Shown in pieces: positions 1,326-45,700 of a stretch of 64,000 nt of DNA. The notes under the pieces were generated by a model. It was given only the letters and a program-made list of their open reading frames with translations. It was not told where the DNA came from and did not search any database. Positions within the stretch are counted from its first letter, which is position 1, and every line of letters begins with the position of its first letter. Origin of the DNA: a virus; IMG/VR virus record IMGVR_UViG_3300047494_000058, positions 1 through 64,000 of that record. The stretch is one strand, 5' to 3'. The position numbers and the translations under genes were made by a program.

Positions 1326-1338
1326 CAGGTACGACCTT

Positions 1339-13024: not shown

Positions 13025-13059
13025 CCCTTCTCTCCCACCCATAACGAGGTTTTCATCAC

Positions 13060-13572: not shown

Positions 13573-13608
13573 GCGCTCGGCGCACCAACCCCTCCGGAGT
13601 TCAATTAC

Positions 13609-19838: not shown

Positions 19839-20017
19839 CCTACGACACGCTGCCCGGCGGCGAGGACTGGCTGCTCACTCCGGTGGCCGAGGGCATGTGT
19901 AAGTATGAGTCGCTCATCGACGGCACGCTCGACATCTGCGACGTCGCCCTCATGAATGAGGTACTCATGGTACGTGCAATTAACCGCAACCGGCCCCGGC
20001 CAACCGACGAGACCTGA
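19772..20017 (+). CDS. -1 frameshift extension of the tail assembly chaperone
   Basis: Slippery C CCT TTT at 19772-19778. The -1 frame is open to 20017 and encodes LPGGEDWLL.PV..G.C.YESL.DG..D..D.A.MN. Confidence 0.7.
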   Translation, partial: PFYTRTAYRPAVRDSSQDPGAIAYDTLPGGEDWLLTPVAEGMCKYESLIDGTLDICDVALMNEVLMVRAINRNRPRPTDET

Positions 20018-20020
20018 CGT

Positions 20021-22605: not shown

Positions 22606-22928
22606 TGCCCGCGCCCTCCGCCTACATCGTGCCGCTGCAGCCGAACCCGCAGACGTTCCAGATCACGCTGGGCAGTAATACCTACCGTTTCACGGCGCTG
22701 TGGCGTAACAATGCCTTGGGCGGCTGGTTCCTGGACATCGCAGACGCCAACAACAATGCACTGGTGAGCGGCATCCCGATGGTCACCGGCTGCGACCTGC
22801 TAGCGCAGTACAAGTACCTGAACTTCGGCGGGCAGCTGGTGGTGCAGACGACTTCGGACACCGACGCGGTGCCGACCTTCATCAACCTGGGGTCGGATGG
22901 CATGCTGTACTGGATACCCAACCCGTGA
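22602..22928 (+). CDS. Baseplate plug-like protein
   Basis: PL...PQ.F.I.L..GW.LDI.D....LV.GIP.VTG.DLL.QY.YL motif. Confidence 0.8.
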   Translation: MMPAPSAYIVPLQPNPQTFQITLGSNTYRFTALWRNNALGGWFLDIADANNNALVSGIPMVTGCDLLAQYKYLNFGGQLVVQTTSDTDAVPTFINLGSDGMLYWIPNP

Positions 22929-23932
22929 CCATAGCAGTGTCGACCATCCCGGGTACGGTCCAGTTCGGCCGCAAGTTCTCGTTTGTGGTGGGCACCACCG
23001 CGGGCGGCGGCCTCGAACTCGGCACGTTCCGCTGCGTGTTCCACATCCAGCGCGGTGACTTCCAGAATCCGAACACCTGCGACGTCCGCGTGTACAACCT
23101 GGCGCCGGCCACGGCCAACGTGTTGGCGCAGAAGGAGTTCACCCAGCTGGCCGTGCAGGCTGGCTACCCCGGCAACTACGGGCTCATCTTCCGCGGCGGC
23201 ATCACCCAGGTGAGGCTCGGACGCGAGAGCCAGACCGACTCATATGTGGACTTCACCGCGGGCGACGGCGACGAGGCATACAACTTCGCCAACGTCGTGA
23301 GCAGCCAGGTAGCGGGCGCCGATCATAACACGCGCATCCTGGGCGACATGCTCACGGCCATGGCGGCCAAGGGCGTGGCGCCGGGCGACTGCCGCGAAAC
23401 CGTATGGGGCAATGATAACAAGCCCCGCGGCGTCGTTACCTACGGCTCGGTCTGCCGGCGGCTGCGCGGCATCACGCGCGACAATGACTACATCTGGAGC
23501 ATCCAGGACGGCGTACTCAAGCTGGTACCACAGACCGCGTACCTACCGGGCGCCATCCCGTTGATCTCGCCCGACACCGGGCTCATCGGCATACCGGAGC
23601 AGACGCAGAACGGGGTCAACATGACCGTGCTGCTTAACCCCTCCATTAAGATCGGGCAGGCCATCCAGCTGGCCGACCCGCGCGGCGTCAATCAATACAG
23701 GTTCGGCGTCGGCCTGGCATCGTCGGTGTCGAACCTTAATGCCCAGCAGGCCAACAAAATCAGTAGCAACGGCCTGTACTACGTGATGGCGGCCACCCAC
23801 GTGGGCGACTCGCGCGGTAACGACTGGTACACCGCCCTGAACTGCCTGTCAATCAACGCCACCATAGCGCCGGGCGACCAGACGTACCTGCAGGCGTTCC
23901 AGGTGCCCAACGGCCCGCTCTTCAGGTACTAA
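22925..23932 (+). CDS. Baseplate hub protein
   Basis: PNT..VRVYNL, AGY.GNYG.IF.G, WSIQDG and TGLIG.PEQT motifs. Confidence 0.85.
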   Translation: MTIAVSTIPGTVQFGRKFSFVVGTTAGGGLELGTFRCVFHIQRGDFQNPNTCDVRVYNLAPATANVLAQKEFTQLAVQAGYPGNYGLIFRGGITQVRLGRESQTDSYVDFTAGDGDEAYNFANVVSSQVAGADHNTRILGDMLTAMAAKGVAPGDCRETVWGNDNKPRGVVTYGSVCRRLRGITRDNDYIWSIQDGVLKLVPQTAYLPGAIPLISPDTGLIGIPEQTQNGVNMTVLLNPSIKIGQAIQLADPRGVNQYRFGVGLASSVSNLNAQQANKISSNGLYYVMAATHVGDSRGNDWYTALNCLSINATIAPGDQTYLQAFQVPNGPLFRY

Positions 23933-23934
23933 CG

Positions 23935-24651
23935 ATGCACAGATCCGAACGCGTCCACAACCTACCGGAGATGCTGTACCAGGTCGCGCTCGCGGAGCGC
24001 TCCGACATGTGGACCGCACTACCCGGCTTCGTCGTGAAGTTTCCTGGGAGTGCGGGCGGCGCCATGACCGTGGACATTCAGCCGACGGTCAACGGTATGT
24101 ACACCGACGAGAAGGGCCTCAACCACTTCCAGCGCATGCCGGTGCTGCTCGACTGTCCCATCGTGTGGGCCGGCGGCGGCGGCGCCACGCTCACGTTCCC
24201 CATCACCGCGGGCACGGAGCAAACCGGCGACGAGGCCCTCGTGATCATAGCGTCGCGTGCCATCGACAGCTGGTGGTACCACGGCGGCATCCAGAACCCG
24301 GTGAGCCTGCGCATGCACGACCTGTCGGACGGGTTCGCGATCATCGGGCTCAAGTCACTGCCCAGATCGTTCGCCGTCGACACCTCGAACGTGTGCCTGA
24401 CGTCCAACGACCTGCAGACTTATGTCAAGATGAGCCCGGCCGGCAAAACCGTGGCGATCCAGGCCAGCAACGGCATCAATCTCAACGGCGTCACCATCGA
24501 CTCGGCGGGCAATATCGGCAACGTGAAGAATTTGACCGGCGCGGGATCGGGAGCCGTCACCGGCTTTACCGACGCGTCGAACACGGCGAACACGAGCCTG
24601 ACGACCCACTATCACACGGCGGGCGGACCTCCCCCGATACCGGGGAGCTAG
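23935..24651 (+). CDS. Baseplate central spike (Gp138-like)
   Basis: WTALPG, GGG.TLTFPI..GDE and R.HDLSDGFAI motifs, with a C-terminal HxH iron-binding tip (THYH). Confidence 0.88.
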   Translation: MHRSERVHNLPEMLYQVALAERSDMWTALPGFVVKFPGSAGGAMTVDIQPTVNGMYTDEKGLNHFQRMPVLLDCPIVWAGGGGATLTFPITAGTEQTGDEALVIIASRAIDSWWYHGGIQNPVSLRMHDLSDGFAIIGLKSLPRSFAVDTSNVCLTSNDLQTYVKMSPAGKTVAIQASNGINLNGVTIDSAGNIGNVKNLTGAGSGAVTGFTDASNTANTSLTTHYHTAGGPPPIPGS

Positions 24652-24652
24652 C

Positions 24653-25012
24653 ATGCGATACCGTCAGCTGGGCCTCGGCGGCGACTACACGGTCGACACG
24701 CCGTTCCTTATAAACTCGCCCGCGTGTGTCGCTCAGGCGATCCTCACGCGCCTGAAGCTGTTCCTGGGCGAATGGTTCGTGGACACCACCGACGGGACGC
24801 CCTGGTTCCAAAGCATCCTCGGCAAGAACTACAATAACCCGGACGCGCTCATCAAGCAGCGCATCATAGGCACACAAGGGGTGACCTCGATTGCCACATA
24901 TTCAAGCTCCTTTAACGGCCCGACGCGGGCGCTCACGGTGAACACCACGGCGAATACGCTGTACGGGATCACTGCCCCGGTCATTGTCTCACAGATATTG
25001 CCCACGGTCTGA
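24653..25012 (+). CDS. Baseplate wedge / sheath initiator (gp25-like)
   Basis: MRYR.L...GDY..VAQAI.TRL.LF.GEWF.DTT.GTPW motif. Confidence 0.85.
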   Translation: MRYRQLGLGGDYTVDTPFLINSPACVAQAILTRLKLFLGEWFVDTTDGTPWFQSILGKNYNNPDALIKQRIIGTQGVTSIATYSSSFNGPTRALTVNTTANTLYGITAPVIVSQILPTV

Positions 25013-25017
25013 CCTCT

Positions 25018-26190
25018 ATGGCATCCAAGTACGCCCCTGTGATCACCGCTGCCGGCATCACCTCGAACACCTTCGCCCAGAACCTGGCATACCTCACGGC
25101 GGACTACCAGACGATATTCGGGTCGGATGTCTACCTGGGGAATGACTCCCAGGACGGCCAGTTCATCGCGATCCTGGCCCAGGCGTTTACGGACCTCGGC
25201 GACGCGGCGGTGGCGGTGTACAATTCATTCAGCCCGGCCACCGCGGTCGGCGCCGGCCTGTCGTCCATTGTTAAGCTCAACGGCCTGGGGCGCCTGGTCC
25301 CGTCGTCGTCCACGGTCGGGCTCACCATCGTGGGCGTCGCCGGCACACAGATCTACAACGGGCAGGCCCAGGACACCGCCGGGAACCTCTGGAACCTGCC
25401 TCCCGTGGTCGTGATCCCGACATCCGGTACCATAGTAGTGACTGCCACCGCAGCGACCACGGGAGCTATTTCCGCGGCGACGGGAACCATCACGAAGATA
25501 GCGACCGCGATCTACGGCTGGCAGACGGTAACGAACGCGTCGGCCGCGGCCATCGGTGCCCCGGTCGAGATCGACGCGCAGCTGCGGGTGCGGCAGTCGA
25601 CCTCGGTGTCGCTGCCGTCGCTCACGATCTTCGAGGGCATCCAGGCGGCCATCGCCAACCTGACCGGCGTCACCCGCTCGCGCGGCTACGAGAACAACAC
25701 CGGCACGACCAACAGCAACGGCATCCCGCGTAACACCCTGTACTTCGTGGTCGAGGGCGGCGCGCAGTCGGATATCATCAATGCGATCGCGTCCAAGATC
25801 ACGCCGGGTATCGGCACCCAGGGCTCGATCAGCCAGACGGTGACCGACAGCTATGGCTCGACGCGGCTCGTTAAGTTTGACACGCCGACTGAGCAGACTA
25901 TCCAGGTCGCGATCACGGTCCACCCCCTGAGCGGCTGGTCGTCGACCACGATCCCGGTCATCCAGGCCGCGGTGGCGGCCTACCTGTCGAACCTGCCCAT
26001 CGGCACCAACGTAAGCTATACCGGCATGTTCCTGCCGGCGTACCTGCCGGGGACGATCTATGCCGGCACCTTCAGCATCACGTCGCTCACCCTGCAGGGC
26101 TCGGGCGGCGCTGCCGCGGCCGACGTCGCGTTGTCGTACAACACGGCCCCGGTGAGCGCGCCGGCCAACGTCACGATCACGGTGTCCTGA
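25018..26190 (+). CDS. Baseplate J-like wedge protein
   Basis: IFGSDVYL..DSQDGQ, YNSFSP.TA.G.GL and E.DA.LR.RQ..S motifs. Confidence 0.9.
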   Translation: MASKYAPVITAAGITSNTFAQNLAYLTADYQTIFGSDVYLGNDSQDGQFIAILAQAFTDLGDAAVAVYNSFSPATAVGAGLSSIVKLNGLGRLVPSSSTVGLTIVGVAGTQIYNGQAQDTAGNLWNLPPVVVIPTSGTIVVTATAATTGAISAATGTITKIATAIYGWQTVTNASAAAIGAPVEIDAQLRVRQSTSVSLPSLTIFEGIQAAIANLTGVTRSRGYENNTGTTNSNGIPRNTLYFVVEGGAQSDIINAIASKITPGIGTQGSISQTVTDSYGSTRLVKFDTPTEQTIQVAITVHPLSGWSSTTIPVIQAAVAAYLSNLPIGTNVSYTGMFLPAYLPGTIYAGTFSITSLTLQGSGGAAAADVALSYNTAPVSAPANVTITVS

Positions 26191-26191
26191 C

Positions 26192-26866
26192 ATGTCATGG
26201 TCAGCCGACAGCGGCGACATTACAGCCGACAGCGGCCTGGTCACCGCCGATGGCGCATACCTCACGAGCCCGACTGCGGCGCCGTACCTCGGGCTGATCA
26301 CCTCCGAACACCGCTTTCAGCCCAAGTTCGCCGCACTAATGGCAGTGCTGCTGAGCGCTGTGGGCGACACGACCGCGGTCATCAACTCGATGCCGGGTAA
26401 GTTCGACCTGGATACGGCAGTCGGCAACCAGCTGGACATCGACGGCGCCTGGGTCGGCCAGGACCGCGTCATTACGCAGGTGCTGCTGGTCGAATTTTTC
26501 GGGTTCGCGGACGACCAGGCGGCGCTCACCATGGGCGAGCTTACCAACCCGACCATCGGCGGCGTGTTCTACGAACTCGGCGCCACGTTCGCGCAGTCGA
26601 CCACGCTGTCGGACGACGACTACCGCACTATCATCCGGGCGCGCATCGTCCGCAACCAGGCCAACGGCACGCTGTCGGACCTGGAGGCCGCGCTGGAATA
26701 CATCTTCCAGGTGCCCTGCGCAGTGGCCGACATCGGTGACCAGTCCCTTGCCATCGAAGTCTCGGCCCCGATCACGCAGACCCAGGAGGCGCTGCTCAAT
26801 ACGCTCGACATATTGCCGCGACCAGCCGGTGTTGCCATCGGCTCGATCACGTACTCCCCACTATAA
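26192..26866 (+). CDS. Baseplate wedge protein (DUF2612 family) with N-terminal TAD(S/G) repeats
   Basis: LITSEH...PKF, FDLDTAVG.QLD..G.WVG, L.DDDYR..I.A.I..N and P.PAGV motifs. Confidence 0.85.
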   Translation: MSWSADSGDITADSGLVTADGAYLTSPTAAPYLGLITSEHRFQPKFAALMAVLLSAVGDTTAVINSMPGKFDLDTAVGNQLDIDGAWVGQDRVITQVLLVEFFGFADDQAALTMGELTNPTIGGVFYELGATFAQSTTLSDDDYRTIIRARIVRNQANGTLSDLEAALEYIFQVPCAVADIGDQSLAIEVSAPITQTQEALLNTLDILPRPAGVAIGSITYSPL

Positions 26867-32719: not shown

Positions 32720-35657
32720 CACAGTGCCTCGGGCATCTTGTAGTCGTTCGCGACCTTCCACGCGTCGTTCCATGCTGCCAGCGTTATCACCAGCAGCGCC
32801 TCGGGCCAGGCGTACAGCCGGCCGGGCTCACCGGGCACGTGCCGGAAGTTGTCCAGCATGCGGAAGAACAGCACGCGCCGCGCCAGCGACATCCGCCCGA
32901 CCGACTCGATGATCTCGTCGCGGGTCTTCATTCCAGCACGACTGGGAACACGTTGCGCCAGCCCTGGTGTTGCCGGCCCTGCTCGTTGGCGGCGATGAGG
33001 GCATCCTGGTGCACTTTGAGGAGTGCCTCAGCATTGGCCGCCCGCAGCAGCAGCCGGTCGCGCTCGGCGACCACCGCGGCGTGCTTGTCCGCGTGCACAT
33101 TATGCGAGTCGCGGTGGGCCTCCAGGGTCTTGAGCATATGGCTCACGTCCGACTCCAGCACGTACCAGACCCCCGGGCCCTGCGGCCCGCGGTCGGCCGC
33201 GTTATGAATCGCCTCGCCGTTTGCCACCTGCATCTCGACCGTGACGTCGAGGACGCCCTCACCCGTACGCCGGACTATCGGGCTGTATCGCTTCGTCATG
33301 TGCTACCTCCGGATTCCTGATTCTTTCGATTGACTTGTCCACGGCCCGCTGCACTTCGAGCGGCGCATTCGCCAGGTCGATCAGCCCGTACTTGTTCAGG
33401 GCGTTGGACACTATCCAGTCCAGGGCTTCGTTCGCCCGACTCAGTTTGCGGCCCAGGCGCATCAGCGCCTCCTTGTCGGGCGTCATGGTAGCCGCACCGC
33501 GTAAGCCAGGCCGCAGAACCCGCGGTCGCCTGCTGGGTAATCGTCCATCTTGCGCCACATCATGCAGTCGCTGGCAATGCAACGCCCCAGTGGGCCGGTC
33601 GCGACCGCGTTGTACGACGTATGCTCGATATGTGGCCGTGCAGCGATGCGCATCCATGGGCACCACTTCCCCAGCGCCTCACCCTCCGTGATTACCATGA
33701 CCCTATCTGCTTGATTGCTTCCATGATCCTCGTCCTCTCGGCCTTGAGGGCCTTTTCGACTGCCTTATTCACCTCGCGCTCCTGCCGGCGCATGTCGGCC
33801 AGGATACCCTGCACGCGCACACACTCCCTGCGGGCCGCGTCCTCGATGGAGTGCGACACGTTGAGCCGCGCCTCCATCTCGATCATCGCGGCCCGGTGGT
33901 CGATCCACAGCATCCAGTTACCGCCCGCCTCCTCCACCATCTTCACCTGACCGGTCGCCAGCATGGCCACCGCGTCCATGCCGTGGGCCAGCTGACTGTA
34001 GCGCTTGACTATGGTCGCCAGGGTTCCCGGCGCACGGCCTTCAGAAACGCCGTCGTCGTCTTGGGCTTGGTGTCGAGGTAATTGTGCTGGAACGGGCGCT
34101 GCTTGAAGCGGTCCAACCGCTTCTGTAAGCGTCGGGATTCGCGGATCGACCGGCTCCGGTTCCATCGTCCAATCGCGCAGGCCAGTAGCGACAGCCCCAG
34201 TGCCGCCAGCAGGGTCTTCAGTGTGTTGCTCATACATTCTTCGTCCTCTCGTGTTCGGGCGCATCATGCTGGCGGCCCGAGAATTTAAGCCCTTTATTAC
34301 TGAGCAGCTGCCGGATGCAGTCGAGCCAGGTGTCGAAGTCCTCCTTGTTCGGCATATACTTGGCATCGATGGTCGATACCAGCGAGGCCCCGACCAGCGT
34401 GTCGGGCGGCGCCAGGTACACGCTGACGAACGCGCCCTCGACGCGTACCGCGAGCCGCATCGGCACCTGTGTTCCGCTCACTGGTCCACCGCGAGTTCGG
34501 CCCCGACCAGCGCCAGGGCGACGCCGGCCGGCGCCCCGTTGAGGACCAGGTAGTTGCGTAGGTGCCGGGCGTGATTGTCAACCGCATCCTGGTCCGCCTG
34601 GGGCAGGGTCTTGATGAACGCCTGGACCTCGCGCAGAGTGTAAGTTTCGGGTGTCGGCATTACAGCACCAGGATGAAGAACGAGACGATGGGGAACAGTA
34701 TCAGTCCCAGGATCATAAGCAGTGTGTGCCGCGGCATCATGGCTACGACACCCAGCAAAACAATGGTCCACAACCAGGCCGCCACGGTACTCATGACTGG
34801 CCGCCCTCAAACGAATTGAGCGCAAGCATCGCCAGCAGGAACGACCGAGACTTGAGCGACCCGCCCTCGTTCCGGGCCTGGCGCAGCAGCACCATGCCCT
34901 CCTGGAAGTTGGGCGCCGGCACCGGCACCGGCACGGCCTGCACGACCGTGACCGCCCGGCCGGACGTCTTGCCCTTCTTGCGGGCGCGGTTCACGATCTT
35001 CTGCGGCGCCTTGTGCCGGTGTACGGTCGAGGGCGACACCTTGAGTTTCTTGGCGGTCTCCACTATCGTCGCCCCTGCCGCGGTGTTGTCATAGATCGCC
35101 TGCTTCACCGCAGGGTCGAGGTCGCGGCTCATGACGCCTTCCTCGGCTGCCGGCGCTGGCCCTTCTTGCGTGACGGCCCCTTGGTCGCCAGCCGGGCCTG
35201 GTACAGCCGCAGGCGCTGGGTCCGCTTAGTGACATCGCTCGTCGGCCTGAGTTCCCACGACGCCATGTTGGCCTCACAATTGCTGCAGAACGGCCCCTTA
35301 GTTTCGTTGGGATACGGGCACGGTCCCGGCATTTCACATTTTTTGCTCATTGACACTATCCTCTATATGGTACGGGTGATCTTTCGGCTTCAAACAGATG
35401 TGACATATCTTCGAACGGACGCGCTCCATGAAAACATGCTTGAGATCGCGCTGGAATTTCTTCTGTGCATTAACCAGGCACAGATAGTGGAACCTCTCGA
35501 ACGGGTGACCGATGGATACGCGACCCTGCAGCACCGGGTCCTTCCGCCGGCCCGGACGGCCACAGATGTGGCATACCGGACCGGTGGTAGCCACCCCCGA
35601 TCCTAAGGCGGAGGGCGACCCCTCCGCTTTGGCCGTCTTGGGCCTCGTCAGCCTCAC
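32719..35657 (-). CDS. Run of about 11 small, tightly coupled hypothetical genes (32719-32931, 32928-33299, ~33259-33486, 33483-33698, ~33692-34012, 34009-34233, 34230-34481, ~34478-34659, 34791-35132 HTH, 35129-35356, 35334-35657)
   Basis: Chain of ATGA/GTGA stop-start overlaps. Several products are Cys-rich (putative Zn binding) and one is an HTH (ATIVETAKKLKVSPSTVHRH). Individual starts are uncertain. Confidence 0.55.
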
Positions 35658-37117
35658 TGCGGCATCTCAATCAGGATCAGGGTCTCCATGGCGCGGGTCG
35701 TGGCGACGTAGCACAGGTTGCGCTCCTGTTGCTGCTCCCAGGGCTGACGGGCACGCTTCGAGGGGCACTGGCTGGAGTTCAGCCAGAACACGCGCTTCGC
35801 CTCCAGGCCCTTGGCCTTGTGGATTGTCGCCAGGTGCACGGCGTGGCTGCGCTCGGCGAACATGGAGTCGATGACGGCCAGCAGGCCGGCAACCGTGAAC
35901 TTGTCCTCGTCCAGGCCGTCGATGATGCACATGATGCAGTCGGTCTTGTCCTGGATGTTCTCGGCCTTGTCTTCCTTGTTCTTGGCACGGGCCTTCTCGA
36001 CCTCGCGCTCGGTCCAGGTCGTCAGCTTCTGGGTGAGCAGCTTGACGTCGTCGCCGGCCCGCATACGAGCGATCAGGGCCTTGAGGCCCTGGCCGATCTC
36101 GCGGCCCATGATGTGCGCCGGGACGCGAGCCTTGAACAGCTGGAAGGCCAGGCTGACGAGCGGCTTAGCAGTGCGGCAGACGACCAGGTCCTGGGGCTGG
36201 AACGTGGCCGGCGTGAACTCGGTACCCATGTACCGCACTTCCCCGGCGGGCGCGTTCGGGGCGGCCTCGATGTGGCTCACCCACTGGCGGGCATGCTCGA
36301 CAATGGCCGTCGGGCAGCGGTAGGAGACCGTCAGCGGCAGGCGGATGCAGGCGAACTCCTTGGCCATCGTCGCCAGCGACTCGGAGTCTGCGCCGCGGAA
36401 CCCGTAGATGGCCTGGGCCGGGTCACCGACCGCGATCAGGCGGGCGCCGGGCTTCATGACCTTGCGCAGGATGGCGCGCTGCAGGGCGTTGGTGTCCTGA
36501 GCTTCGTCAACGAACACGAAGTCGAATTTCGGCAGCACCAGGCCGTCGCGCACCGCGACGTACAGCAGGTCGTCGAAGTCCACCTCGTGGGAGGCGTTGC
36601 TCTTCTCCAGCAGCGCCTGAGCGTACTCGACCGCGGTGGAGTAGCTGGCCTTCTCATCGTCCAACTCCAGATCGAAGTGGTCGACCAGGTCGCGCCAGAC
36701 CATGACTTGGTCGATCTCGGTCCAGATGCCGATGCCGACCTGCTTGGCCAGGCTCACCAGCCGGCAGGCGAACCGGCCGTACATCTTGGCGTCCTTCTCG
36801 GTCATCATGCCGTCGACCAGGTCGCGCAGCTTGTCGCCGTTAACGTCGCGGACGTTCTTGTGGCGGGTGACCGCGCTGTAGGTCAGGGAGTGGAACGTGC
36901 GGGCATTGACGCCGCGATTTTTGAGTTCGGTGGCGATCGACTTGTTGAAGGCCAGGAACAACGTGCTGCCCGTCACGCGCTTTAGCGCCTCGACAATCGT
37001 GGTGGTCTTGCCTGAGCCGGCGACGGCCTCGACAATCGCGTTGCCTTCGCCGCTCTCGGCGAAGTTGAAAACATTGGTCTGAAGCGGCGACCAGCTGCGA
37101 ATCATTGAATTGTCCAT
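35654..37117 (-). CDS. Superfamily 1 (UvrD-like) DNA helicase
   Basis: AVAGSGKTT, VDEAQD, VGDP.QAIYGFRGA, SYRCP, TIHKAKGLE and YVATTRA motifs. Confidence 0.92.
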   Translation of the reverse strand: MDNSMIRSWSPLQTNVFNFAESGEGNAIVEAVAGSGKTTTIVEALKRVTGSTLFLAFNKSIATELKNRGVNARTFHSLTYSAVTRHKNVRDVNGDKLRDLVDGMMTEKDAKMYGRFACRLVSLAKQVGIGIWTEIDQVMVWRDLVDHFDLELDDEKASYSTAVEYAQALLEKSNASHEVDFDDLLYVAVRDGLVLPKFDFVFVDEAQDTNALQRAILRKVMKPGARLIAVGDPAQAIYGFRGADSESLATMAKEFACIRLPLTVSYRCPTAIVEHARQWVSHIEAAPNAPAGEVRYMGTEFTPATFQPQDLVVCRTAKPLVSLAFQLFKARVPAHIMGREIGQGLKALIARMRAGDDVKLLTQKLTTWTEREVEKARAKNKEDKAENIQDKTDCIMCIIDGLDEDKFTVAGLLAVIDSMFAERSHAVHLATIHKAKGLEAKRVFWLNSSQCPSKRARQPWEQQQERNLCYVATTRAMETLILIEMPQ

Positions 37118-37847: not shown

Positions 37848-38314
37848 TTACACCACACCTCGGGCTCTTGCACAATTCCCCGGGCGCAGCAGCGCCTCGC
37901 CAGCACAGGTGGGGCAATAAGTCTCGGACACGGGGTCATATGGGTCGCCCTCGCAGGTCGGGCACTTGTCGTAGACGGTGCAACCGGCGGCAGAGTTTAC
38001 CTCCAACTTGAGTGACCGGATGCGGCCTAGCAGGAACTCCTTCTCGCTGTATGTCTCCTTTACCATCAATTCGTCGTCGCCATTTTGAGCTCGTGATCGC
38101 CGCACCAGTCGCGCATCGGGTCGACGGTCATCCAGCACGTGGCATGGATCGGCTGCGGTCCGTTAGGCGACTGAATGAACGTGCCAATGACCTGGCCCGG
38201 CCGGCGTCGGCAGGCACAAAGCGTCGACAGGTCCGGCAGGACCATCCGGTCCATGTACAGGCAGGTCGAGCATGAGCGCGGGTTCAGTTGGTCTTCGTAC
38301 TTGGTCTTATCCAT
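37848..38314 (-). CDS. Two small Cys-rich hypothetical proteins (37848-38066 and 38066-38314)
   Basis: TGATG overlaps. Motifs CPTC x2, and CxxC..CRR.P..DWCG. Confidence 0.6.
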
Positions 38315-38610
38315 CAGGGCCCCAAGGTGTTGGCAATCAATGTGGCATAGCCAGCGATGTCGTGCCAGCTGTCATAATGGTATGGGTCGCCGTTCAAGAT
38401 GCGCGCGATCTTTACCGAAATTATCGAAAGTGCTTCGCGCATATGCGGCGGGATCGGACGCCACCCGGCATCGTCAACTTCACTCTGCGGGTGCCAGTTC
38501 GGCGTGTTCATCATCACGGCCAGGAGCGCCTGCGAGATCTCGGACTGCTCGATGAAGCTGCCGTAGGTCTTGCCACGCTCCGCCAGTGTGGCCTGAATGT
38601 TATCAGTCAT
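38314..38610 (-). CDS. DUF6378-like phage nucleotide-metabolism-associated protein
   Basis: TL.ERG..YG.F and EAL..I..KIARILNGDP...DSW.DIAGYA.L motifs. Confidence 0.8.
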   Translation of the reverse strand: MTDNIQATLAERGKTYGSFIEQSEISQALLAVMMNTPNWHPQSEVDDAGWRPIPPHMREALSIISVKIARILNGDPYHYDSWHDIAGYATLIANTLGP

Positions 38611-39181
38611 TGGCTGCTCCTCGCGTCACATCGTCCACCATGACAGCCCATACCTCGTCGGCCGGCAGGCACGATTTCAGGACCCCGGGAACCTTCCCCC
38701 ACTGATAGGAGCCCTGTTTGGCCGCGGCCCCGTATGCAGCCCGGAATTGGTCGCGCAGGGACACCATGACGTGCCGGCGGTCCAGGCCGCCGTTTTGGTA
38801 GGCGAACAACGCGGTTTCGGTAATGTCGGCCAGCTTTACCACGGCGTCGACTATGGTGCCCTTATGGCCACGACCGCCCCGGACCTCGATCACGTCGCGG
38901 GCGTTCTCCTCGATCAGCCGGTAGACGTCGGGAGCCACCGCCTTGGCCGTGGCCGGGATGTCGCCCGTCAGCACTTCATGCAGGTCGTGGGCAAGTGCCC
39001 AGCGCTCGATGGCGGCCATGTCCAGCGAGTTGTGGTGATCAACGCCGATCGCCTCCGCGATGGCGCAGGCGATGTGGTACACGCGGTACTGGTGTTCGGC
39101 CAGCGACTGTGGGCGCGTGAGCGCTACAATCGTCCAGCGCTTGACCTCGGTCGCGCGCAGTGCTAATTCAAGGTTGGGCAT
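38603..39181 (-). CDS. datZ: HD-domain dATP phosphohydrolase (DatZ-like)
   Basis: LRA..V.RW.IV....Q..AEH..RV, AL.HDL.E..TGD.P...K and K.AD..E..LF motifs. Co-occurs with purZ. Confidence 0.8.
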   Translation of the reverse strand: MPNLELALRATEVKRWTIVALTRPQSLAEHQYRVYHIACAIAEAIGVDHHNSLDMAAIERWALAHDLHEVLTGDIPATAKAVAPDVYRLIEENARDVIEVRGGRGHKGTIVDAVVKLADITETALFAYQNGGLDRRHVMVSLRDQFRAAYGAAAKQGSYQWGKVPGVLKSCLPADEVWAVMVDDVTRGAAND

Positions 39182-40233
39182 CGGGTAGATCCTTCGGGGT
39201 CACGGTAGAGGAGACCGCTGCGCATATGATAGCAGCGGCCGAAAGCGACGAAATCGCGGTCCACGTCCTTCGTCAGCGGCGCGCATTCGTGCGGTATGAG
39301 CCCGGAGTCCGGGCATACGATAGCGGGCTTGTCGGCCAGCGCCTGGTCGGGGTCGTCGCTGCGCATCACGCCGGTAGCGTGCAGGAGTGCGAAGACGCCT
39401 GCCCCTATAAGGCCGCCCAGCGCCGGCAACGCGATCTTGGACTCCCTCATATTACTCCAGGTACTCATAACAGCGTCACCTTGCGACCCAGGCGCTGCGA
39501 CAGGTCGGCCTCGTAGTCCTGCACCTCGCGCCTCATGGCGTCGCGCACGGCCCGGTGGTATTCGATCTCGGTGAACACGCCTTTTTCCATGAGCAGCCGG
39601 GCCAGCGCCGCGTCGTTCACCATCGCGGAATTGATTCCGACCCGCACATGCTTGGGGTCGGCTATGTCCTGGTCGTACTGCAGCAGCATCTTAACGCCGG
39701 TCTGCATCGCGTGGGCCAGCGCCATGTACTCCTGGCGCAGCGTGTCGATAATGTCTTCGTTCATTTCTTCTCCTCGGGTTCGGGGATGCCCAGATGTTCG
39801 CGGATTAGCCGGCGCAGCTTGTAGGCGCGGGTAAAGTTCGGGGCCTTTAGGGCCTGCTGCAACAGGTCCTGGGCCACTAGTAGCTTAGCGTGCACGCGGT
39901 CGCGGTCGGCGACCATGGCCGTGAACCGCTGGTCCATGACCTTAAGCTCGTTCATCATGGCTTTGAATCCGGTTCGGAAGTAGCCGCAGGGCTAGATTGT
40001 GTCGGTTTGACGAAGTTGGGCAGCCCCACACTGCGAAGAATCTCGTTACAGGCGTCCAGCAATCGGGGGTGAAAATAATACAGCCCAGCCATCTTCGTCA
40101 GCGCCGCCTCCAGCGCAGCAACGCGGTCGCTTGCGGCGAACAGGGCATCCCTATAACCAGGATGGGGAAAGCACACCTTGTCGTTTACCGCTCGAATGAT
40201 GGGCACCAAATCGTCCGATGTTCTGTCATCCAT
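39163..40233 (-). CDS. Four small hypothetical genes (39163-39468, 39465-39764, 39761-39958, 39955-40233)
   Basis: Chain of ATGA overlaps on the minus strand. Confidence 0.55.
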
Positions 40234-40756
40234 GAGGCACCTCTGTCTGAGATGCTGTCACTTCGCTCATCAGGATCGGCGCGAGGCCGGTCCATTCCGC
40301 CGACACACAAACGTAGCGTTCGTCCGGCTCATCGTCGTAGGCTTCGTGTGTTTTCATGACTCGCTTGCTGTGCATGTGGCCGTGGATGTTCTTGGCATAC
40401 CGGTACATCTGGTTCTGGTGGATCGGTACGTGGGTCAACAGGCAACCGTTGTACTCGGCGGCTCCGTAAATCTTGCCGAAGTAGGTTTGATAAACCTCCA
40501 GCGGATAGTGATCGTGGTTGCCCAGCACGAGGCGCTTGTAGCCATTCAGCGAAGCCAGCACCTTGTGCCCGTCCTTGCCGAAGAACACGTCCCCTAGATG
40601 CCACACGGTGTCCCGCTTGGTAACAACCGCATTCCATCGGGCCACCAGTTCGGCGTCATGGGCTTCGATTGTGTCGAATGGCCGCGCCTCCTTCTCGAAC
40701 TCTATGACCCGCTTGTGCCCAAAATGGGTATCCGAGATTACGAATACGCGGCTCAT
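40226..40756 (-). CDS. Calcineurin-like metallophosphoesterase
   Basis: SDTHFGH, HLGD, GNHD, THVP and IHGHMH motifs. The start is placed at MSRVFVISD. Confidence 0.9.
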   Translation of the reverse strand: MSRVFVISDTHFGHKRVIEFEKEARPFDTIEAHDAELVARWNAVVTKRDTVWHLGDVFFGKDGHKVLASLNGYKRLVLGNHDHYPLEVYQTYFGKIYGAAEYNGCLLTHVPIHQNQMYRYAKNIHGHMHSKRVMKTHEAYDDEPDERYVCVSAEWTGLAPILMSEVTASQTEVPHG

Positions 40757-40963
40757 GCGGCTGGGTCTTTTATGGGCGGTGGGCGAATCTCTGATCGCGC
40801 CAATTCCAGCGCCTGGTCCCAAGGCATTTCGCAGCCGTCGTACAGTTCGCGCGCCCTTCGACCTATCGCCAAATCCTCAGCGGTGGGTCCGCACAACCTC
40901 GTCGGGCTTTGCCTATACCATTCATCGAAGTTCACTACTCACCTCCCTTTGCAGATGCGGAGT

Positions 40964-41251
40964 TCACCGCGAACTCTCCAGATTACTCGCTGCAGTGAAC
41001 CCCAATTCATACGCGGCCTGCCTTATAGCCTCCTCGTCCAACTCGGCCTTAATGGCCCGCGACAGCCAGGAGCCCCACATCCGGTTGAGGTTCCCGTCCC
41101 GGTACTGACCGATGAACTCACCCGCGGTGTCGTAGGTGCCGCCCTCGGCGGGCCAGGAACCGGCCATGACCCGGCGCACCCAGCCCTCGAAGATCGGACG
41201 CTCCCTGTCCATCAGGGCGACGCGCTGCTCCATCGACTTGAACTCTTTCAT
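40964..41251 (-). CDS. Hypothetical protein
   Basis: ATAGAGGATAG leader before ATG 41251. Confidence 0.6.
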   Translation of the reverse strand: MKEFKSMEQRVALMDRERPIFEGWVRRVMAGSWPAEGGTYDTAGEFIGQYRDGNLNRMWGSWLSRAIKAELDEEAIRQAAYELGFTAASNLESSR

Positions 41252-41262
41252 ATTGCTATCCT

Positions 41263-41523
41263 CTATTTGATAGACGCAAAACCCGCCGCCCACAACCGGT
41301 TTGACTCGTTACCGTCCGGATAAGGGTTCGTGCGCCCATCGTTCTGAATCGCATCCCGTTGTCCGCGCTCGTAGGCGCCCTGCACTCGATAATGCTCCAG
41401 TTCGGCGGCATCGGCGACAAGTAACCGCTCAACATCTCGCAACTCGACGTAATCGCCCATACCGCGGTCTTCGCGCATACCAACCACGGTCCAGTGTAGC
41501 ACACGGAGGTTTCTCGGCGTCAT
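41263..41523 (-). CDS. Hypothetical protein with C-terminal Rmf-like motif
   Basis: AYERG..DA...G..NPY.......W.AGF motif. Confidence 0.5.
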   Translation of the reverse strand: MTPRNLRVLHWTVVGMREDRGMGDYVELRDVERLLVADAAELEHYRVQGAYERGQRDAIQNDGRTNPYPDGNESNRLWAAGFASIK

Positions 41524-41885
41524 CACCGCACCACCACCGTGATCTGCGTCGGGACACCCGGCGTCTGGAACGGGATCGCCGCGCAGGCCGTCGCGCTCTG
41601 TGCCCCCTCCTGGCCATTTGCAACCGCAGTGACTGCAAAACACTGCGTCGTGCCGGGCGTGAGGCCCGCGCTGATCAGCACCCCAGTGTTGGCCAGGGCC
41701 GACTGCACCTTGACCAGGGTCGAGCCCTGTGCCGCCTGGTACACGTTGTAGGTCAGCGTCGCCGTGATCGTTGAGCCGTCGCTGTTGAGCGTCGGCGCCG
41801 TCCAGGACAACGATGCAGTAGGCGATGCCCAGGCTGCTGCAGCGATCACACAGCCAATCAACATACTGATAATCCGTTTCATCAT
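41523..41885 (-). CDS. Secreted single fibronectin type III domain protein
   Basis: GGAG RBS, signal peptide ending AAWA|SP, and LSWTAPT.N.DGS...YNVY..GL.PG...FAVTAV...EG..S. Confidence 0.75.
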   Translation of the reverse strand: MMKRIISMLIGCVIAAAAWASPTASLSWTAPTLNSDGSTITATLTYNVYQAAQGSTLVKVQSALANTGVLISAGLTPGTTQCFAVTAVANGQEGAQSATACAAIPFQTPGVPTQITVVVR

Positions 41886-41905
41886 TCATCTCCATGTGTA
41901 AGAAA

Positions 41906-42466
41906 CTATAATGCTCCGTCGGGCCCCAGCGGCGGACATTCGATGCAGTCGCAGCCCGGCGCCTCGCAGTGGTGCGGGTTATCGTGCTGGGTCCAGGAGT
42001 GCCCACATGTGGGGCACGCGGCAGGGCGCGGCAGGTTCGTGATCTCCGGCCCCTCATTGTGCGGCGTCGGTGTCGGGTTCAAGGGGTCGACGCGCCGCGG
42101 CAGGGCCGGATTCTCAGGGTCGTTGTCCTGCTCGCCGGTCGGCAGTGGCGGTATGCTTGTGCTCATGGGTCGCTCCTCGATGTGTTGTGCCAGGCCGGTG
42201 ACCTCGTCGAACACCCAGCGCCTGGCCTCGTTTATTTCCATCTTCTCGGCGATCGCCTTCGCGATGTTGATGTGGTTCATGCTGCAGTAGTCGAGCAGCA
42301 GGATGAAGACGTCGGCCGCCTCGTGCGGGCTCGACGGGTCAGCGATAAGCTCGCCCACCTCCTGGTATAGTTTGAGGAACACGCCGGCCGACGTGCGCTT
42401 GGGGAACTGCCGGCTGGCCCAGGCCGTCACGGCGCGCTGGACGTCGGAGAAGCTGTCCCAGTTCAC
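41906..42466 (-). CDS. mazZ: MazG-like (d)GTP diphosphohydrolase MazZ (DUF550-type) with a C-terminal Pro-rich/Zn-finger extension
   Basis: GTG start overlapping the purZ stop. Motifs W...QFP, KL..EV.EL..P....E.AD..ILLLD and KM.IN..R.W. Confidence 0.78.
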   Translation of the reverse strand: MNWDSFSDVQRAVTAWASRQFPKRTSAGVFLKLYQEVGELIADPSSPHEAADVFILLLDYCSMNHINIAKAIAEKMEINEARRWVFDEVTGLAQHIEERPMSTSIPPLPTGEQDNDPENPALPRRVDPLNPTPTPHNEGPEITNLPRPAACPTCGHSWTQHDNPHHCEAPGCDCIECPPLGPDGAL

Positions 42467-43608
42467 TTGAACCACCTGCTGAAGCTGCCCTGGCTGAGCC
42501 ACTGCGCGGTGAACACGTCGTCCACATAGATCGCGTCCGCGGCTGTGGGCCCGAACGTGAGGATGCGCGGCCGGACGCCGGTCCAACTCTCAATCTCGAC
42601 CAGCCACTTGGACAGCTTCTCGCCGATGTTCTGCCCGTACTCGGGCTGCGGCGCCACATAGTCGGCAAACGTCAGTACCAGGTGGTTGGGGCTGCAGATC
42701 CAGGCGGCCTCGCGGGCCTGCTGAGCGCTGAACGTGAACACGCGCCGCGGCAGCCGAGTTACGGTCGTGAGTTCGGGCTCGCGGCCGAGGTCGGCCTGCC
42801 AGTCAAGTTCTGTCTGGTCGTCGTAGCATGCGCCGGACGTTCCGACGAGGCTTCCGTCGGCCGCGTCGTAGCGATTCGCTACTCTGATGGGGAATGTGCG
42901 CATCGTGCCCCAGACGGTGGCCCCCCGTGCGGTGTCGAACGGTATCCTGCAGTCGGCCAGCAGCTGCGTCACGCTGACGTCGCGCGAGGTCGTGTGCGGC
43001 CAGAACTTGGTGTGGCTGCCCAGCGAGAACCCCTGGGCGCCCTCGATCAGGATGTGCCGGGCGGTCGCGACCTCGGAGTTGTACAACTGCTCGGACACGC
43101 AGAACTGCACGTCAATCATCGCCAGCGCCTTCTGGATGTCGCGATACAGGGCCATCGGGGCGTCGCGGGCCAGCGGCGACTTGTACGGGTCGCGCCAGAT
43201 CTTGTCGATGGTCGCGGCCGAGGTGCCCTTCATCGTGGAGCCGATGCGCGCCAGCACCTTCTCGGCCTCGGCGTGCCGCGGCTGCAGGATGCAGGCGTTG
43301 GGGTGAATCACGATACGCTTACCGGCCAGGTAGCTGCGGGCCGCCTTGGCCTCGGCCAGCAGCGAGTCCAGGTTCACCACCGACCCGGGGCCGATCAGCT
43401 GCGTGCACACGCTGTGGCACACCAGGCTGTTGGCCAGCATTGTGTGCACGAACTTGTGGCCCGCGGCGTTGATCGCCGTGTGGCCGGCGTTCGGGCCCCA
43501 AGCCGTCATCGCCACGTCGGGCTGCAGCTGTTCGCCCAGGAGGTGTGCCAGCGCGCCCTTACCGGTGCTGCCGTACTGCATATCGACCACTATATCAAGC
43601 TTTGTCAT
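42463..43608 (-). CDS. purZ: 2-aminoadenylosuccinate synthetase PurZ
   Basis: PurA fold with QYGSTGKG (Ser in place of the catalytic Asp of PurA GDEGKG). Also PNAGHT, EGAQG.SL, TSRD, RTFPIRVANR and TTVTRLPRRVF. Confidence 0.93.
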   Translation of the reverse strand: MTKLDIVVDMQYGSTGKGALAHLLGEQLQPDVAMTAWGPNAGHTAINAAGHKFVHTMLANSLVCHSVCTQLIGPGSVVNLDSLLAEAKAARSYLAGKRIVIHPNACILQPRHAEAEKVLARIGSTMKGTSAATIDKIWRDPYKSPLARDAPMALYRDIQKALAMIDVQFCVSEQLYNSEVATARHILIEGAQGFSLGSHTKFWPHTTSRDVSVTQLLADCRIPFDTARGATVWGTMRTFPIRVANRYDAADGSLVGTSGACYDDQTELDWQADLGREPELTTVTRLPRRVFTFSAQQAREAAWICSPNHLVLTFADYVAPQPEYGQNIGEKLSKWLVEIESWTGVRPRILTFGPTAADAIYVDDVFTAQWLSQGSFSRWFK

Positions 43609-45446
43609 TTTGCCGTCGCCTCGAACCAGTTCTTACCAGTCTTGCCTTTGCAGAGTATGGGAACCCTGAACTTCAGGGGTGTCTTTTCGCCATCGAACCG
43701 TTGCAACAGGTCGAGGATGTCGACCTGCTTGACCTGCTTGCCTAGCGAGATGCACAGTTCGTCGTGCACCGACAGCATCAGGCGCGAGTCGGTCCCGTGC
43801 AGCATCTCGGCGACCTCGATCATCTTGTATTTGATGATGTCGGCGCAGGCGCCCTGGAACAGGAGCCCTGCGGCCTTGTGCGCGCCCTGACCTCGCGGGA
43901 AGTGCAGTCGGCGCTTCAAGGGCGTAAGGATGTAGCCGCGGGCCTTGGCCACGGACTCGGCGCCGTTGGTCATGCCCTTGATGCCAGGGATCGTCGCGTG
44001 GTATTTCTTGAAGATCGCCTCCGCGGCCTCGCCGGCCCGGAAGTAGCCGCGCTCGTCCACCCAGTAAGGCAGGCCCATCTCGCGCGCCAGCTTCCCCTGG
44101 CCCATACCAAACACCATCGCAAGGTTAATCTGCTTGGCGTTAGCTCCGCCGGTCTTCTGGTCGCGGTTACGCGGCACGCCCACCAGCTTCGACACCAGGC
44201 CGTGGAAGTCGACCATGGGGTCGGCCGCGTAGGCGTCGAGCAGTACGGGCTCCTTCACGTAGTGCGCAAAGCAGCGAAAGTCGATCTGGTCGTAGTCCGC
44301 GCTCAACCAGCTGTTGCCGACGTCGGGCAGGAACAGCGACCGCACTATGCGGGCAAGCTTCACGTCCCTCGCGTGGATCTGTTGCAGTGCGGGCTCGGTC
44401 ACGCTCATGCGGCCGGTGGTCGTGCCGGAATCCGCCTCGGTCTTGGTCTGGTTGATGTTGCAGTGGATGTAACCCTTGTAGCTGTCGCCCAGCACGTACC
44501 GGTTGACGAACACGTCGCGGGCCTTGATCATGCCGCGGATATTCGCGATCAGCCCGGCCTCGGGGAACTTCATATTGTTGAGAGCATGCGTCCGGACCGA
44601 CGCGTTGCCGCCGTCGGTGGGCTCCAGCGGCGTGCCGTCCCGCGCCCGCCACTGGCCCTGGTCGTCCTTCACGGGCGCCACGATCTTGAGCACCTGCGGC
44701 CCTGAGTTCACGTTGACCTTGGAGCCCACCAGGCGGTCGAGTTCGCGCTGGTCGGCCTGGACCTGGCGGTCGAGCTCCTTGGAGGCGATCTCGGCGCGCT
44801 CCAGGTCCACGCGTACGCCGCGCTTCTCCAGGTCCAGCACGACGCCCAGCAGCTGCCGCTCGACACCGCAGATGTAGCGCAGGTCCTGCTTCTCGATCTC
44901 GCGCTCCTGGGCCAGCCAGACGCGCAGCGCTATCGCGGCGTCCGGGCAGGCGTACGTCGCTACCATCTCCTCGGGCGCGTACTGCAGGTTCAGGATCTGC
45001 GCATCCCGCGTGGCCTTGCCACCGTGGGCCTGCGCCAGGGCGCCCCATATCTCGACGCTCTTTTTACCGGCGTCGTACTTGCCACCCAGCGAATCCAGGC
45101 TGTACTCGTGCCGGTGTTCGTCGATCAGCGCCTCGCGAATCATGGTGCAGTCGATCTTGGCCGGGTCGAGCGGACAGCCGGCCTCGCGCAGGAAGTGCGC
45201 GTCGAACTTGATGTTATGGTTGACGACCTTGCGCGCCCGGCGCAACTGGTCAAAAGCCCAGCGGCGCTGGTTCTCGATGCGGATGTCGACGTAGATGCTG
45301 TCGACCTTGGTGCCGCCAGCAAACCAGGCGAAGGCCAGGCCGAACGGCTCGTCCTTCCAGAACTTCAGGCCCGTGGTCTCGGCATCACACGCGATCACGT
45401 GATGGCTCGACAGATCAGGGAGAAGCTTGAGTCGCTGTTGCGTCAC
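43605..45446 (-). CDS. dpoZ: Family A DNA polymerase with 3'-5' exonuclease (DpoZ-like)
   Basis: Exonuclease motifs DAETTG, HNIKFD and YA..D. Polymerase motifs TTGRMS..P.LQQI, ADYDQIDFR, AKQINLAMVFGMG and SVHDE. Translationally coupled to purZ. Confidence 0.88.
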   Translation of the reverse strand: MTQQRLKLLPDLSSHHVIACDAETTGLKFWKDEPFGLAFAWFAGGTKVDSIYVDIRIENQRRWAFDQLRRARKVVNHNIKFDAHFLREAGCPLDPAKIDCTMIREALIDEHRHEYSLDSLGGKYDAGKKSVEIWGALAQAHGGKATRDAQILNLQYAPEEMVATYACPDAAIALRVWLAQEREIEKQDLRYICGVERQLLGVVLDLEKRGVRVDLERAEIASKELDRQVQADQRELDRLVGSKVNVNSGPQVLKIVAPVKDDQGQWRARDGTPLEPTDGGNASVRTHALNNMKFPEAGLIANIRGMIKARDVFVNRYVLGDSYKGYIHCNINQTKTEADSGTTTGRMSVTEPALQQIHARDVKLARIVRSLFLPDVGNSWLSADYDQIDFRCFAHYVKEPVLLDAYAADPMVDFHGLVSKLVGVPRNRDQKTGGANAKQINLAMVFGMGQGKLAREMGLPYWVDERGYFRAGEAAEAIFKKYHATIPGIKGMTNGAESVAKARGYILTPLKRRLHFPRGQGAHKAAGLLFQGACADIIKYKMIEVAEMLHGTDSRLMLSVHDELCISLGKQVKQVDILDLLQRFDGEKTPLKFRVPILCKGKTGKNWFEATAK

Positions 45447-45550
45447 TTACGTCCGCCGGTCCATATCGACACGATTGTCGGTACCAGTATAACCAGGGTA
45501 AGGCATAAGGCCGTGATCGCGTGGTCGATTTGCTCAGGTGCCCAGCACAT
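45443..45550 (-). CDS. 35-aa membrane peptide (MCWAPEQIDHAITALCLTLVILVPTIVSIWTGGRK)
   Basis: Read by eye. It has an ATAGAGGATA leader and its stop overlaps the polymerase GTG. Confidence 0.55.
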   Translation of the reverse strand: MCWAPEQIDHAITALCLTLVILVPTIVSIWTGGRK

Positions 45551-45592: not shown

Positions 45593-45700
45593 TCACGCGG
45601 CGTCTACCAGCAGCAGTGTCACCGTAATGATCGCAATAGTAGCCATCAACCAGATCGCATGTTCCCAGGTGAACTGCGGCCGGCGGGGCTTCGGTATCAT
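45593..45700 (-). CDS. 35-aa membrane peptide (MIPKPRRPQFTWEHAIWLMATIAIITVTLLLVDAA)
   Basis: Read by eye. ATGA overlap with the helicase stop and GAGG upstream. Confidence 0.5.
   Translation of the reverse strand: MIPKPRRPQFTWEHAIWLMATIAIITVTLLLVDAA

Follow-up and report, generated by a model that had tools for sequence, protein, structure and literature searches.

Does a phage whose genes predict a contractile tail also carry a complete set of genes for 2-aminoadenine (Z) DNA, and how would the two have come together? This question is raised by the IMG/VR virus record IMGVR_UViG_3300047494_000058, a sequence of 72,224 bases of which bases 1-64000 were analysed here (hereafter the window, whose numbering is used throughout unless genome positions are given). 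The genes concerned are dpoZ, purZ, mazZ and datZ on the minus strand, and a tail sheath gene with its associated baseplate genes on the plus strand. Structural studies from 2021 describe Z phages as Siphoviridae or Podoviridae (PMC8599892; PMC8342488). We consider it probable that the window holds an intact Z gene set of the known type, placed in the replication module of a complete, circular and mosaic phage genome of 72.1 kilobases (kb) that encodes a contractile tail.

A complete set of Z genes

A first-pass annotation, made from the letters of the window without database searches, had proposed that the four minus-strand genes form a complete Z pathway. Their best matches among solved structures identify all four as orthologues of characterised Z enzymes (E values are given in brackets here and below). 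The product of purZ (42463-43608, 381 amino acids (aa)), a predicted 2-aminoadenylosuccinate synthetase, matches the PurZ structures of phiVC8 (PDB 6fm1, 7.7e-60) and S-2L (7odx, 8e-57), versus about 1e-10 or weaker for PurA entries, as well as phrog_1211, “2-aminooxy adenylosuccinate synthetase” (1.1e-75). Residues were compared by aligning the window proteins with their counterparts from Vibrio phage phiVC8, cyanophage S-2L, Acinetobacter phage SH-Ab 15497 and the related Burkholderia phages Bm1 and BCSR129, and with Escherichia coli PurA. In PurZ, S14 of the motif QYGSTGKG replaces the catalytic Asp13 of PurA (GSTGKG vs GDEGKG), and Y12, T281, F314 and Y317 correspond to F12, T262, F295 and Y298 of phiVC8, a tyrosine at the first of these positions being found in S-2L and Bm1 too. 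P240, Y262, W270 and G275 are likewise of the PurZ type, and the shared catalytic residues K17, N40, H43, T125, R139, Q192 and R288 are kept; the roles of these residues were taken from passages of three earlier reports (10.1101/2025.10.22.683976; PMC8515928; PMC8342488).

The adjacent dpoZ (43605-45446, GTG start, 613 aa) encodes a predicted family A DNA polymerase with a 3'-5' exonuclease domain (Pfam DNA_pol_A, 2.8e-52) of the phiVC8-DpoZ type. Its best solved structure is phiVC8 DpoZ (PDB 7pbk, 8.8e-114, vs 7e-36 for Klenow), and all 30 of its best phage matches come from phages that are also in the PurZ match list. Residues resembling the ExoI-III motifs are visible in the alignment. The phiVC8-like DpoZ clade is marked by three clade-specific insertions together with L455, F459 and G548, S583 not being clade-specific, according to the relevant passages of PMC8599892. 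Equivalents of all three marker residues are present in the window protein, as are the insertions; compared with phiVC8, the first two have one extra residue each, and the third is about eight residues shorter.

For mazZ, the listed open reading frame (ORF) spans 41906-42586; since the MazZ alignment starts six residues after the GTG at 42466, the gene most likely occupies 41906-42466 (186 aa). It encodes a putative MazG-like (d)GTP pyrophosphohydrolase whose sole PDB match is S-2L MazZ (7ody, 3.2e-12). Four of the five metal ligands are kept (E36, E39, E49 and D52, equivalent to E35, E38, E50 and D53 of S-2L), and I55, D59 and R82 are the equivalents of the S-2L guanine-specificity residues I56 and D60 and of R83. 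These residues, together with membership of Pfam family PF04447 (6.3e-11), assign the protein to the S-2L (MazZ-1/DUF550) type. Finally, datZ (38603-39181, 192 aa) encodes a predicted HD-domain dATP triphosphohydrolase (Pfam HD_3 and YfbR-like; phrog_7076 “dATP triphosphohydrolase”, 2.3e-19) with S-2L DatZ as its best solved structure (PDB 6zpa, 5.2e-11). The HD metal-binding motif (H30, H65-D66, D74 and D119) is invariant in the six-sequence alignment, and W16 and I18 in RWTIV match W20 and I22 in RWGIV of S-2L, a pair responsible for the sugar and base specificity of that enzyme according to part of a recent preprint (10.1101/2025.10.22.683976).

The translational coupling proposed for dpoZ, purZ and mazZ is supported by two overlaps read from the sequence, an ATGA in which dpoZ ends and purZ begins, and a GTGA in which purZ ends and mazZ begins at GTG 42466. 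The start of datZ lies 2,725 bases past the mazZ stop, in line with the “about 3 kb” originally estimated, and the order purZ-mazZ-datZ is kept with six ORFs in between. The left end of the locus had been placed at 38314, a position that turned out to belong to a neighbouring DUF6378 gene. As far as sequence comparison can establish them, gene identities, specificity residues and gene overlaps are secure, and the enzyme activities are predicted by analogy with the characterised proteins.

On this analogy, MazZ would turn (d)GTP into (d)GMP, PurZ would use dGMP, aspartate and ATP or dATP to make the succino intermediate, and host enzymes would complete the synthesis of dZTP. DatZ would meanwhile destroy dATP, and the DpoZ-type polymerase with its proofreading exonuclease would copy the genome with Z opposite T. 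The PurB, Gmk, Ndk and nucleoside deoxyribosyltransferase (NDT) families were not found in the 72-kb genome by searches that detect them in control genomes. With none of PurB, Gmk and Ndk detected in the phage, the host must provide the remaining steps to dZTP, as the published model has it. Ten more minus-strand ORFs, scanned with Pfam for additional nucleotide-metabolism genes, returned no family. Judging from this gene content, the virion DNA is likely to be Z-substituted.

Conserved and private genes around purZ

To place the locus among its relatives, we used 83 IMG/VR loci, each consisting of purZ and up to 10 kb on either side. Near purZ, these loci carry datZ-like genes in 77 cases, dpoZ-like in 73, mazZ-like in 72, UvrD-like helicase genes in 61 and DUF6378 genes in 38. 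The six minus-strand ORFs between mazZ and datZ behave differently, as five of them occur in none of the 83 loci and the remaining one in a single locus, so that the insert is private to this genome. Its first gene is a 210-aa ORF (41263-41895) with no PHROG match and a sub-threshold Pfam match only. The ORF with one counterpart is a predicted calcineurin-like metallophosphoesterase (40226-40822, 198 aa; Pfam Metallophos 6.6e-06, phrog_547 2.3e-51, PDB 1xm7 1.2e-08), and the other four are small and overlapping (39163-40233; 101, 99, 65 and 92 aa), two of which returned no family in a Pfam and PHROG scan.

One complete circular genome with a contractile-tail module

Direct terminal repeats are assigned to the record, whose CheckV completeness is 100% and whose two ends match identically over 127 bases. 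In the Logan assembly of the same run, made by a separate assembler, the genome is one contig, 72,127 letters long, which wraps onto itself via a 30-letter overlap. As 72,127 - 30 and 72,224 - 127 both equal 72,097, the two assemblies describe one circle of 72,097 bases, and recovery of the same circle by a second assembler excludes an assembler artefact. Between positions 24000 and 43999 of the window, from the baseplate genes across to purZ, the Logan contig shows no difference and an even depth of 20-22.6. G+C content ranges from 0.575 to 0.69 throughout the window and shows no jump where the modules meet.

The sequence is held by one public run, a moss metagenome that is its probable source, and two other runs of the same study contain next to none of the words of the stretch. 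No near-identical DNA was found in the phage collection, and no tRNA genes were found within the window. Sheath relatives at 44-55% identity sit in chromosomes of Proteobacteria and Acidobacteriota.

The genes of the virion module point to a contractile tail. The sheath gene (17394-18872, plus strand) matches DUF3383 in Pfam (6e-126) and phrog_205 (7.6e-120), and is followed on the same strand by a tail tube gene of the KPP10 ORF10 family (18889-19329; PF11681, 4.7e-55). Genes for a tail chaperone, a tape measure protein (20021-21865), a Dit-like protein and a DUF2612 protein lie within 19362-26866 (plus strand), along with a baseplate hub (22925-23932, plus strand; PF22759, 8.6e-08) and a baseplate wedge (25018-26190, plus strand; phrog_6 “baseplate wedge subunit”, 2.7e-45). 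The first-pass annotation had named a sheath and a baseplate J protein as markers of a myovirus. The sheath is confirmed, and the wedge assignment holds through phrog_6 only; the wedge protein matches no Pfam family up to E 0.01, and thus no Baseplate_J. From these genes, we infer a contractile-tail (myovirus-type) morphology.

Two modules with different nearest relatives

The proposal that a Z module is joined to a myovirus-type virion module is upheld, as both lie on the same circle and their nearest relatives differ. The replication-plus-Z module spans 35654-57368 on the minus strand and includes a UvrD-like helicase (35654-37117), a UvrD/PcrA-like helicase (45697-47097) encoded just ahead of dpoZ, an arrangement also found in SH-Ab 15497, another helicase (50856-52484) and a primase (53581-55107). 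Its closest relative is an IMG/VR genome of 59.6 kb (G001; rated complete, G+C 0.61) that matches 11 of the 98 crudely called window ORFs, all of them within 35654-57368 and colinear, with identities of 50% for DpoZ, 48% for PurZ and 39% for DatZ and with primase and helicases also in common. This genome has no virion gene in common with the window and no phrog_205 sheath, and its morphotype is not assignable from the ten of its ORFs that were considered. In both the PurZ tree (87 rows) and the DpoZ tree (33 rows), the window pairs with the locus of this genome (L014) with a support of 99.

The virion module runs from about 61.8 kb through the genome end and start to 29.1 kb. The closest IMG/VR sheath relatives on long contigs, G053 (71.9 kb) and G096 (66.2 kb), have 27 and 23 of the 98 ORFs, respectively, in common with the window in colinear order, all of them virion genes except for one weak helicase match at 25%. 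Identities reach 70-75% for the major head protein, 59-61% for the portal and 58-59% for the sheath, and 65% for the terminase of G053. Neither genome has a match to purZ, mazZ or datZ. Among 50 virion-module (sheath) relatives, two match the phrog_1211 PurZ/PurA profile, and none of the five nearest cultured sheath relatives does. On these sequence comparisons, the genome is a mosaic, with a replication-plus-Z module (about 35.6-57.4 kb) nearest to a sheath-less genome and a virion module nearest to two genomes that gave no match to the purZ, mazZ or datZ of the window.

As a separate observation, G053 carries a 354-aa adenylosuccinate-synthetase-like gene (L238 1420-2484) with the PurA-type GDEGKG loop, whose best PDB matches are bacterial PurA; a protein of a further genome, G052, has the same phrog_1211 score and frame length.

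Sheath genes in other Z phages

We then asked how often PurZ and a tail sheath occur together. An alignment-based scan of IMG/VR yielded 283 contigs with a PurZ relative, at most 51% identical to that of the window, and an exact-pattern scan gave three distant loci. Sheath genes were sought in 50 PurZ records on the longest contigs (49 from the best 80 loci and one from the exact-pattern scan). A phrog_205 sheath was detected in 7 of these 50 records, and in 4 of the 29 that are at least 90% complete, while a PF04984-type sheath was found in none of the 50. Five sheath-bearing IMG/VR PurZ genomes share 12-21 of the 98 ORFs with the window at 21-50% identity.

The combination is also present in isolates, as the phrog_205 profile finds a sheath in Bm1 and BCSR129 and none in phiVC8, S-2L or SH-Ab 15497. 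The 67.5-kb Bm1 record is annotated with a tail sheath, baseplate, DNA polymerase, “2-aminooxy adenylosuccinate synthetase” and “dATP triphosphohydrolase”, and a 111-aa protein of Bm1 aligns with MazZ (E 1e-13). By electron microscopy, Bm1 is a myovirus with a contractile tail, according to the portion of its description available to us, which contains no occurrence of the words adenylosuccinate, aminoadenine or diaminopurine (PMC12003559). Our search of the full-text literature returned no paper that links PurZ or Z genomes to myoviruses or contractile tails. At least seven groups of Z phages are counted in a 2026 Nucleic Acids Research paper (PMC12884076). Overall, the joint presence of Z genes and a sheath is not new, its carriers being already in public data, and the rarity implied by the first-pass annotation, which had set the window against sipho- and podoviral Z phages, was overstated. 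We also note that the Z gene set of Bm1 (PP183292.1; L001 32727-37748) is missing from the published description, although the GenBank record names PurZ and the dATP triphosphohydrolase.

Setting the PurZ and DpoZ phylogenies against sheath state revealed a scattered pattern. In the PurZ tree, 10 sheath-bearing and 27 complete sheath-less rows need eight changes of state, and if rows of unknown state are treated as sheath-less, the branches with good support require at least six. In the DpoZ tree, restricted to rows of known state, eight sheath-bearing rows need seven changes, a number that 243 of 500 label shuffles match or better. Both trees stem from a quick search on the best 80 loci and have weak deep branches, and 3 of the 83 loci, having no usable PurZ frame, were left out of the PurZ tree. 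As a qualitative result of these sequence trees, tail type thus appears scattered over the Z-module phylogeny. A separate pair of loci, L025 (in G010) and L015 (in G002), has closely related DpoZ proteins (branch lengths 0.2, support 100), and of the two genomes one bears a sheath and the other, a complete 39.7-kb record, has none, in what is apparently a second module swap.

Alternative explanations

Several observations weigh against an intact gene set that gives rise to Z-substituted DNA in a contractile-tailed phage. Motif C of DpoZ is the canonical HDE and that of phiVC8 is HDS, and insertion 3 is shortened relative to phiVC8; as stated in parts of PMC8599892, no single residue explains the Z preference of DpoZ, sequence by itself does not predict it, and a related polymerase, that of phiJL001, occurs in a phage with no Z genes. 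MazZ has Q35 at the position of S-2L E34, and the metal ligands are described as strictly conserved in MazZ-1 (PMC8342488, in the passages concerned). Unlike in the published Z cluster, datZ is not contiguous with purZ-mazZ, being split off by a 2.7-kb insert whose genes occur in at most one of the 83 PurZ loci. In addition, Z substitution of the virion DNA is deduced from gene content, tail morphology is read from genes only, and the IMG/VR and Logan assemblies rest on the same reads and are not independent data. Part of this would be expected if the DNA were only partly or not Z-substituted, with the cluster mainly reshaping the host nucleotide pool through depletion of dATP and dGTP, or if the pathway were impaired. 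We regard this as unlikely, given that all four frames are open and intact with their specificity residues, that Bm1, BCSR129 and SH-Ab 15497, aligned alongside, likewise depart from S-2L at E34, and that the datZ-mazZ-purZ triad of S-2L sufficed to put Z into E. coli DNA, as reported in part of PMC8342488.

The difference between the nearest relatives of the two modules could also be expected from a chimera, in which the assembly of a metagenome would have joined a Z-phage replication module to the virion module of an unrelated myovirus, and the 127-base identical ends may reflect assembler overlap rather than true terminal repeats. Such a chimera is extremely improbable here, as the second assembler returned the same 72,097-base circle and crossed from the baseplate genes to purZ with no difference at a depth of 20-22.6, G+C shows no step at the borders, CheckV rates the record as 100% complete, and the isolates Bm1 and BCSR129 hold the same combination of genes. 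If the assembly is correct, the Z genes could still belong to a prophage or tailocin-like element rather than to a free contractile-tailed virus, and indeed, in bacterial genomes, the closest relatives of the sheath (44-55% identity, 33 loci) are embedded in large chromosomal contigs, and many sheath relatives in IMG/VR are classed as proviruses. We nonetheless consider this very unlikely for the present genome, which forms a closed circle of 72.1 kb without flanking host sequence and encodes a terminase, a portal, a protease and a major head protein; PHROG and Pfam scans, which covered part of the ORFs, revealed no integrase-like family. Taken together, these observations favour an intact Z gene set within the replication module of a complete, mosaic phage genome that encodes a contractile tail.

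DUF6378, the MazZ tail and other genes

Immediately downstream of datZ, a DUF6378 gene (38314-38610, minus strand, 98 aa; PF19905, 1.1e-07) has an ATG that overlaps the datZ stop by eight bases, and its product shares 38% identity with the N-terminal portion of a Bm1 protein encoded two genes after the Bm1 datZ. Several candidate roles for this protein were considered, and none gained support. A relationship to the DUF5664-like N-terminal domain fused to some MazZ proteins received a profile-profile probability of 0.5% and was rejected. As to a MazG-like fold, the AlphaFold2 model shows four helices (predicted local distance difference test (pLDDT) 87.6), but the best Foldseek match in the PDB has an E value of 2.8, and a sequence search of the PDB gave nothing below E 0.08. 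Despite its presence near purZ in 38 of the 83 loci, there is no case for calling DUF6378 Z-specific, as two papers list it in phages with no mention of PurZ or adenylosuccinate. A metagenomic association preprint makes no mention of DUFs, metallophosphoesterases or calcineurin.

The last ~86 aa of MazZ (41906-42165) form a tail made of a Pro-rich linker and a Cys/His-rich stretch, and this tail is covered by none of the 72 MazZ matches. The MazZ tails of other Z phages are unrelated, 22-73 aa long and in a few cases Cys/His-rich. By its sequence pattern, the Cys/His-rich stretch may be a small zinc-binding motif. At the other end of the protein, MazZ carries, in four IMG/VR PurZ loci (L013, L015, L016 and L025), a fused N-terminal domain whose start resembles a Walker A motif, and in eight other PurZ loci the N-terminal domain is DUF5664-like instead.

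Within the replication module, the UvrD-like helicases at 35654-37117 and 45697-47097 both match a single PHROG (phrog_1967; 1.3e-121 and 1.8e-62), and an HNH endonuclease gene lies at 47128-47631 (phrog_1492, 4.3e-19). Two 35-aa hydrophobic ORFs (45443-45550 and 45593-45700, minus strand) separate the helicase at 45697-47097 from dpoZ; read by eye, the ATG of the first ORF overlaps the helicase stop (ATGA) and the stop of the second overlaps the dpoZ GTG (GTGA).

In the virion module, a prohead protease, a structural protein and the major head protein (13609-14694) are encoded at 11645-14694 on the plus strand, which also carries genes for a neck protein and a tail fibre protein. The large terminase gene starts at 62975 and continues beyond the window to genome position 64570 (plus strand; phrog_2, 7.2e-28), and terminase and portal together occupy genome positions 62975-67464. 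Four very large ORFs are located between a head-morphogenesis gene and the prohead protease. The first continues from genome positions 69564-72224 into 1-555 of the window (about 1,030 aa, an estimate), followed by 1144-4308 (1054 aa), 5282-8155 (957 aa) and 8377-11643 (1088 aa). Only the second was matched, to a pectate-lyase-like PHROG (8e-23), and a 131-aa stretch of the last has a match in G096.

Implications

The chemistry predicted for this genome is known and adds no new pathway; its value lies in offering a clean natural example of a Z cassette swapped onto a different virion type, which is relevant to the question of how far Z-DNA can spread in the phage world. Beyond this single case, we lean, on balance, towards the view that a replisome-plus-Z cassette comprising primase, helicases, DpoZ, PurZ, MazZ and DatZ is exchanged as a unit among virion types that are unrelated, and that it reached contractile-tailed phages on several separate occasions. 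If so, sheath-bearing Z phages would represent a recurrent class that is not described in the literature searched, and Z-DNA would set no limit on packaging and ejection machinery. A bolder addition would be that Z metabolism includes DUF6378 or the Cys/His-rich tail of MazZ as an additional component, so far uncharacterised. There may also be a bearing on candidates for phage therapy such as Bm1, whose DNA is, to judge from its genes, likely modified, a point on which the available portion of its description is silent (PMC12003559).

Comparison with known Z phages

Phage phiVC8 provides the best solved-structure matches for PurZ and DpoZ and has the DpoZ clade insertions and residues in common with the window, but it encodes MazZ-2, has no sheath and a genome of 39 kb, and its PurZ is 38% identical. 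S-2L resembles the window in its type of MazZ, with the I56/D60 equivalents, in the DatZ pair W20/I22, and in having a tyrosine at the phiVC8 F12 position of PurZ. Unlike the window phage, it replicates via PrimPol and has no DpoZ, according to the relevant part of PMC8342488; it also has no sheath, and its datZ, mazZ and purZ are contiguous.

The gene order of the window recurs in SH-Ab 15497, which has the same succession of UvrD/PcrA helicase, DpoZ, PurZ, MazZ/DUF550 protein and DatZ, within a cluster that reads helicase, DNA polymerase, single-stranded DNA-binding protein (SSB), PurZ, DUF550 protein and HD dATPase. Its PurZ is 44-45% identical to that of the window, the highest value among six aligned references, and its DpoZ is 42% identical. 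Unlike the window, SH-Ab 15497 has no phrog_205 sheath; its MazZ-like protein has a long N-terminal domain where the window protein has none and instead carries a C-terminal Cys/His-rich tail, and its dATPase gene follows directly, whereas six ORFs (2.7 kb) intervene in the window.

The window also resembles Bm1 (PP183292.1) and BCSR129 (MW460247.1), with genomes of 66-67 kb (67.5 kb for Bm1) that combine a phrog_205 sheath and baseplate with DNA polymerase, PurZ, MazZ-like and DatZ genes, in this order, on the opposite strand, and with a DUF6378-like gene near datZ in Bm1. Bm1 is nonetheless distant from the window, as 10 of the 98 crude ORFs match and identities are 42% for PurZ, 38% for DpoZ and 22% for the sheath, and the two isolates fall into a separate, well-supported clade of the PurZ tree. 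Set beside these systems, what is new in the present genome is a clear and well-resolved module swap.

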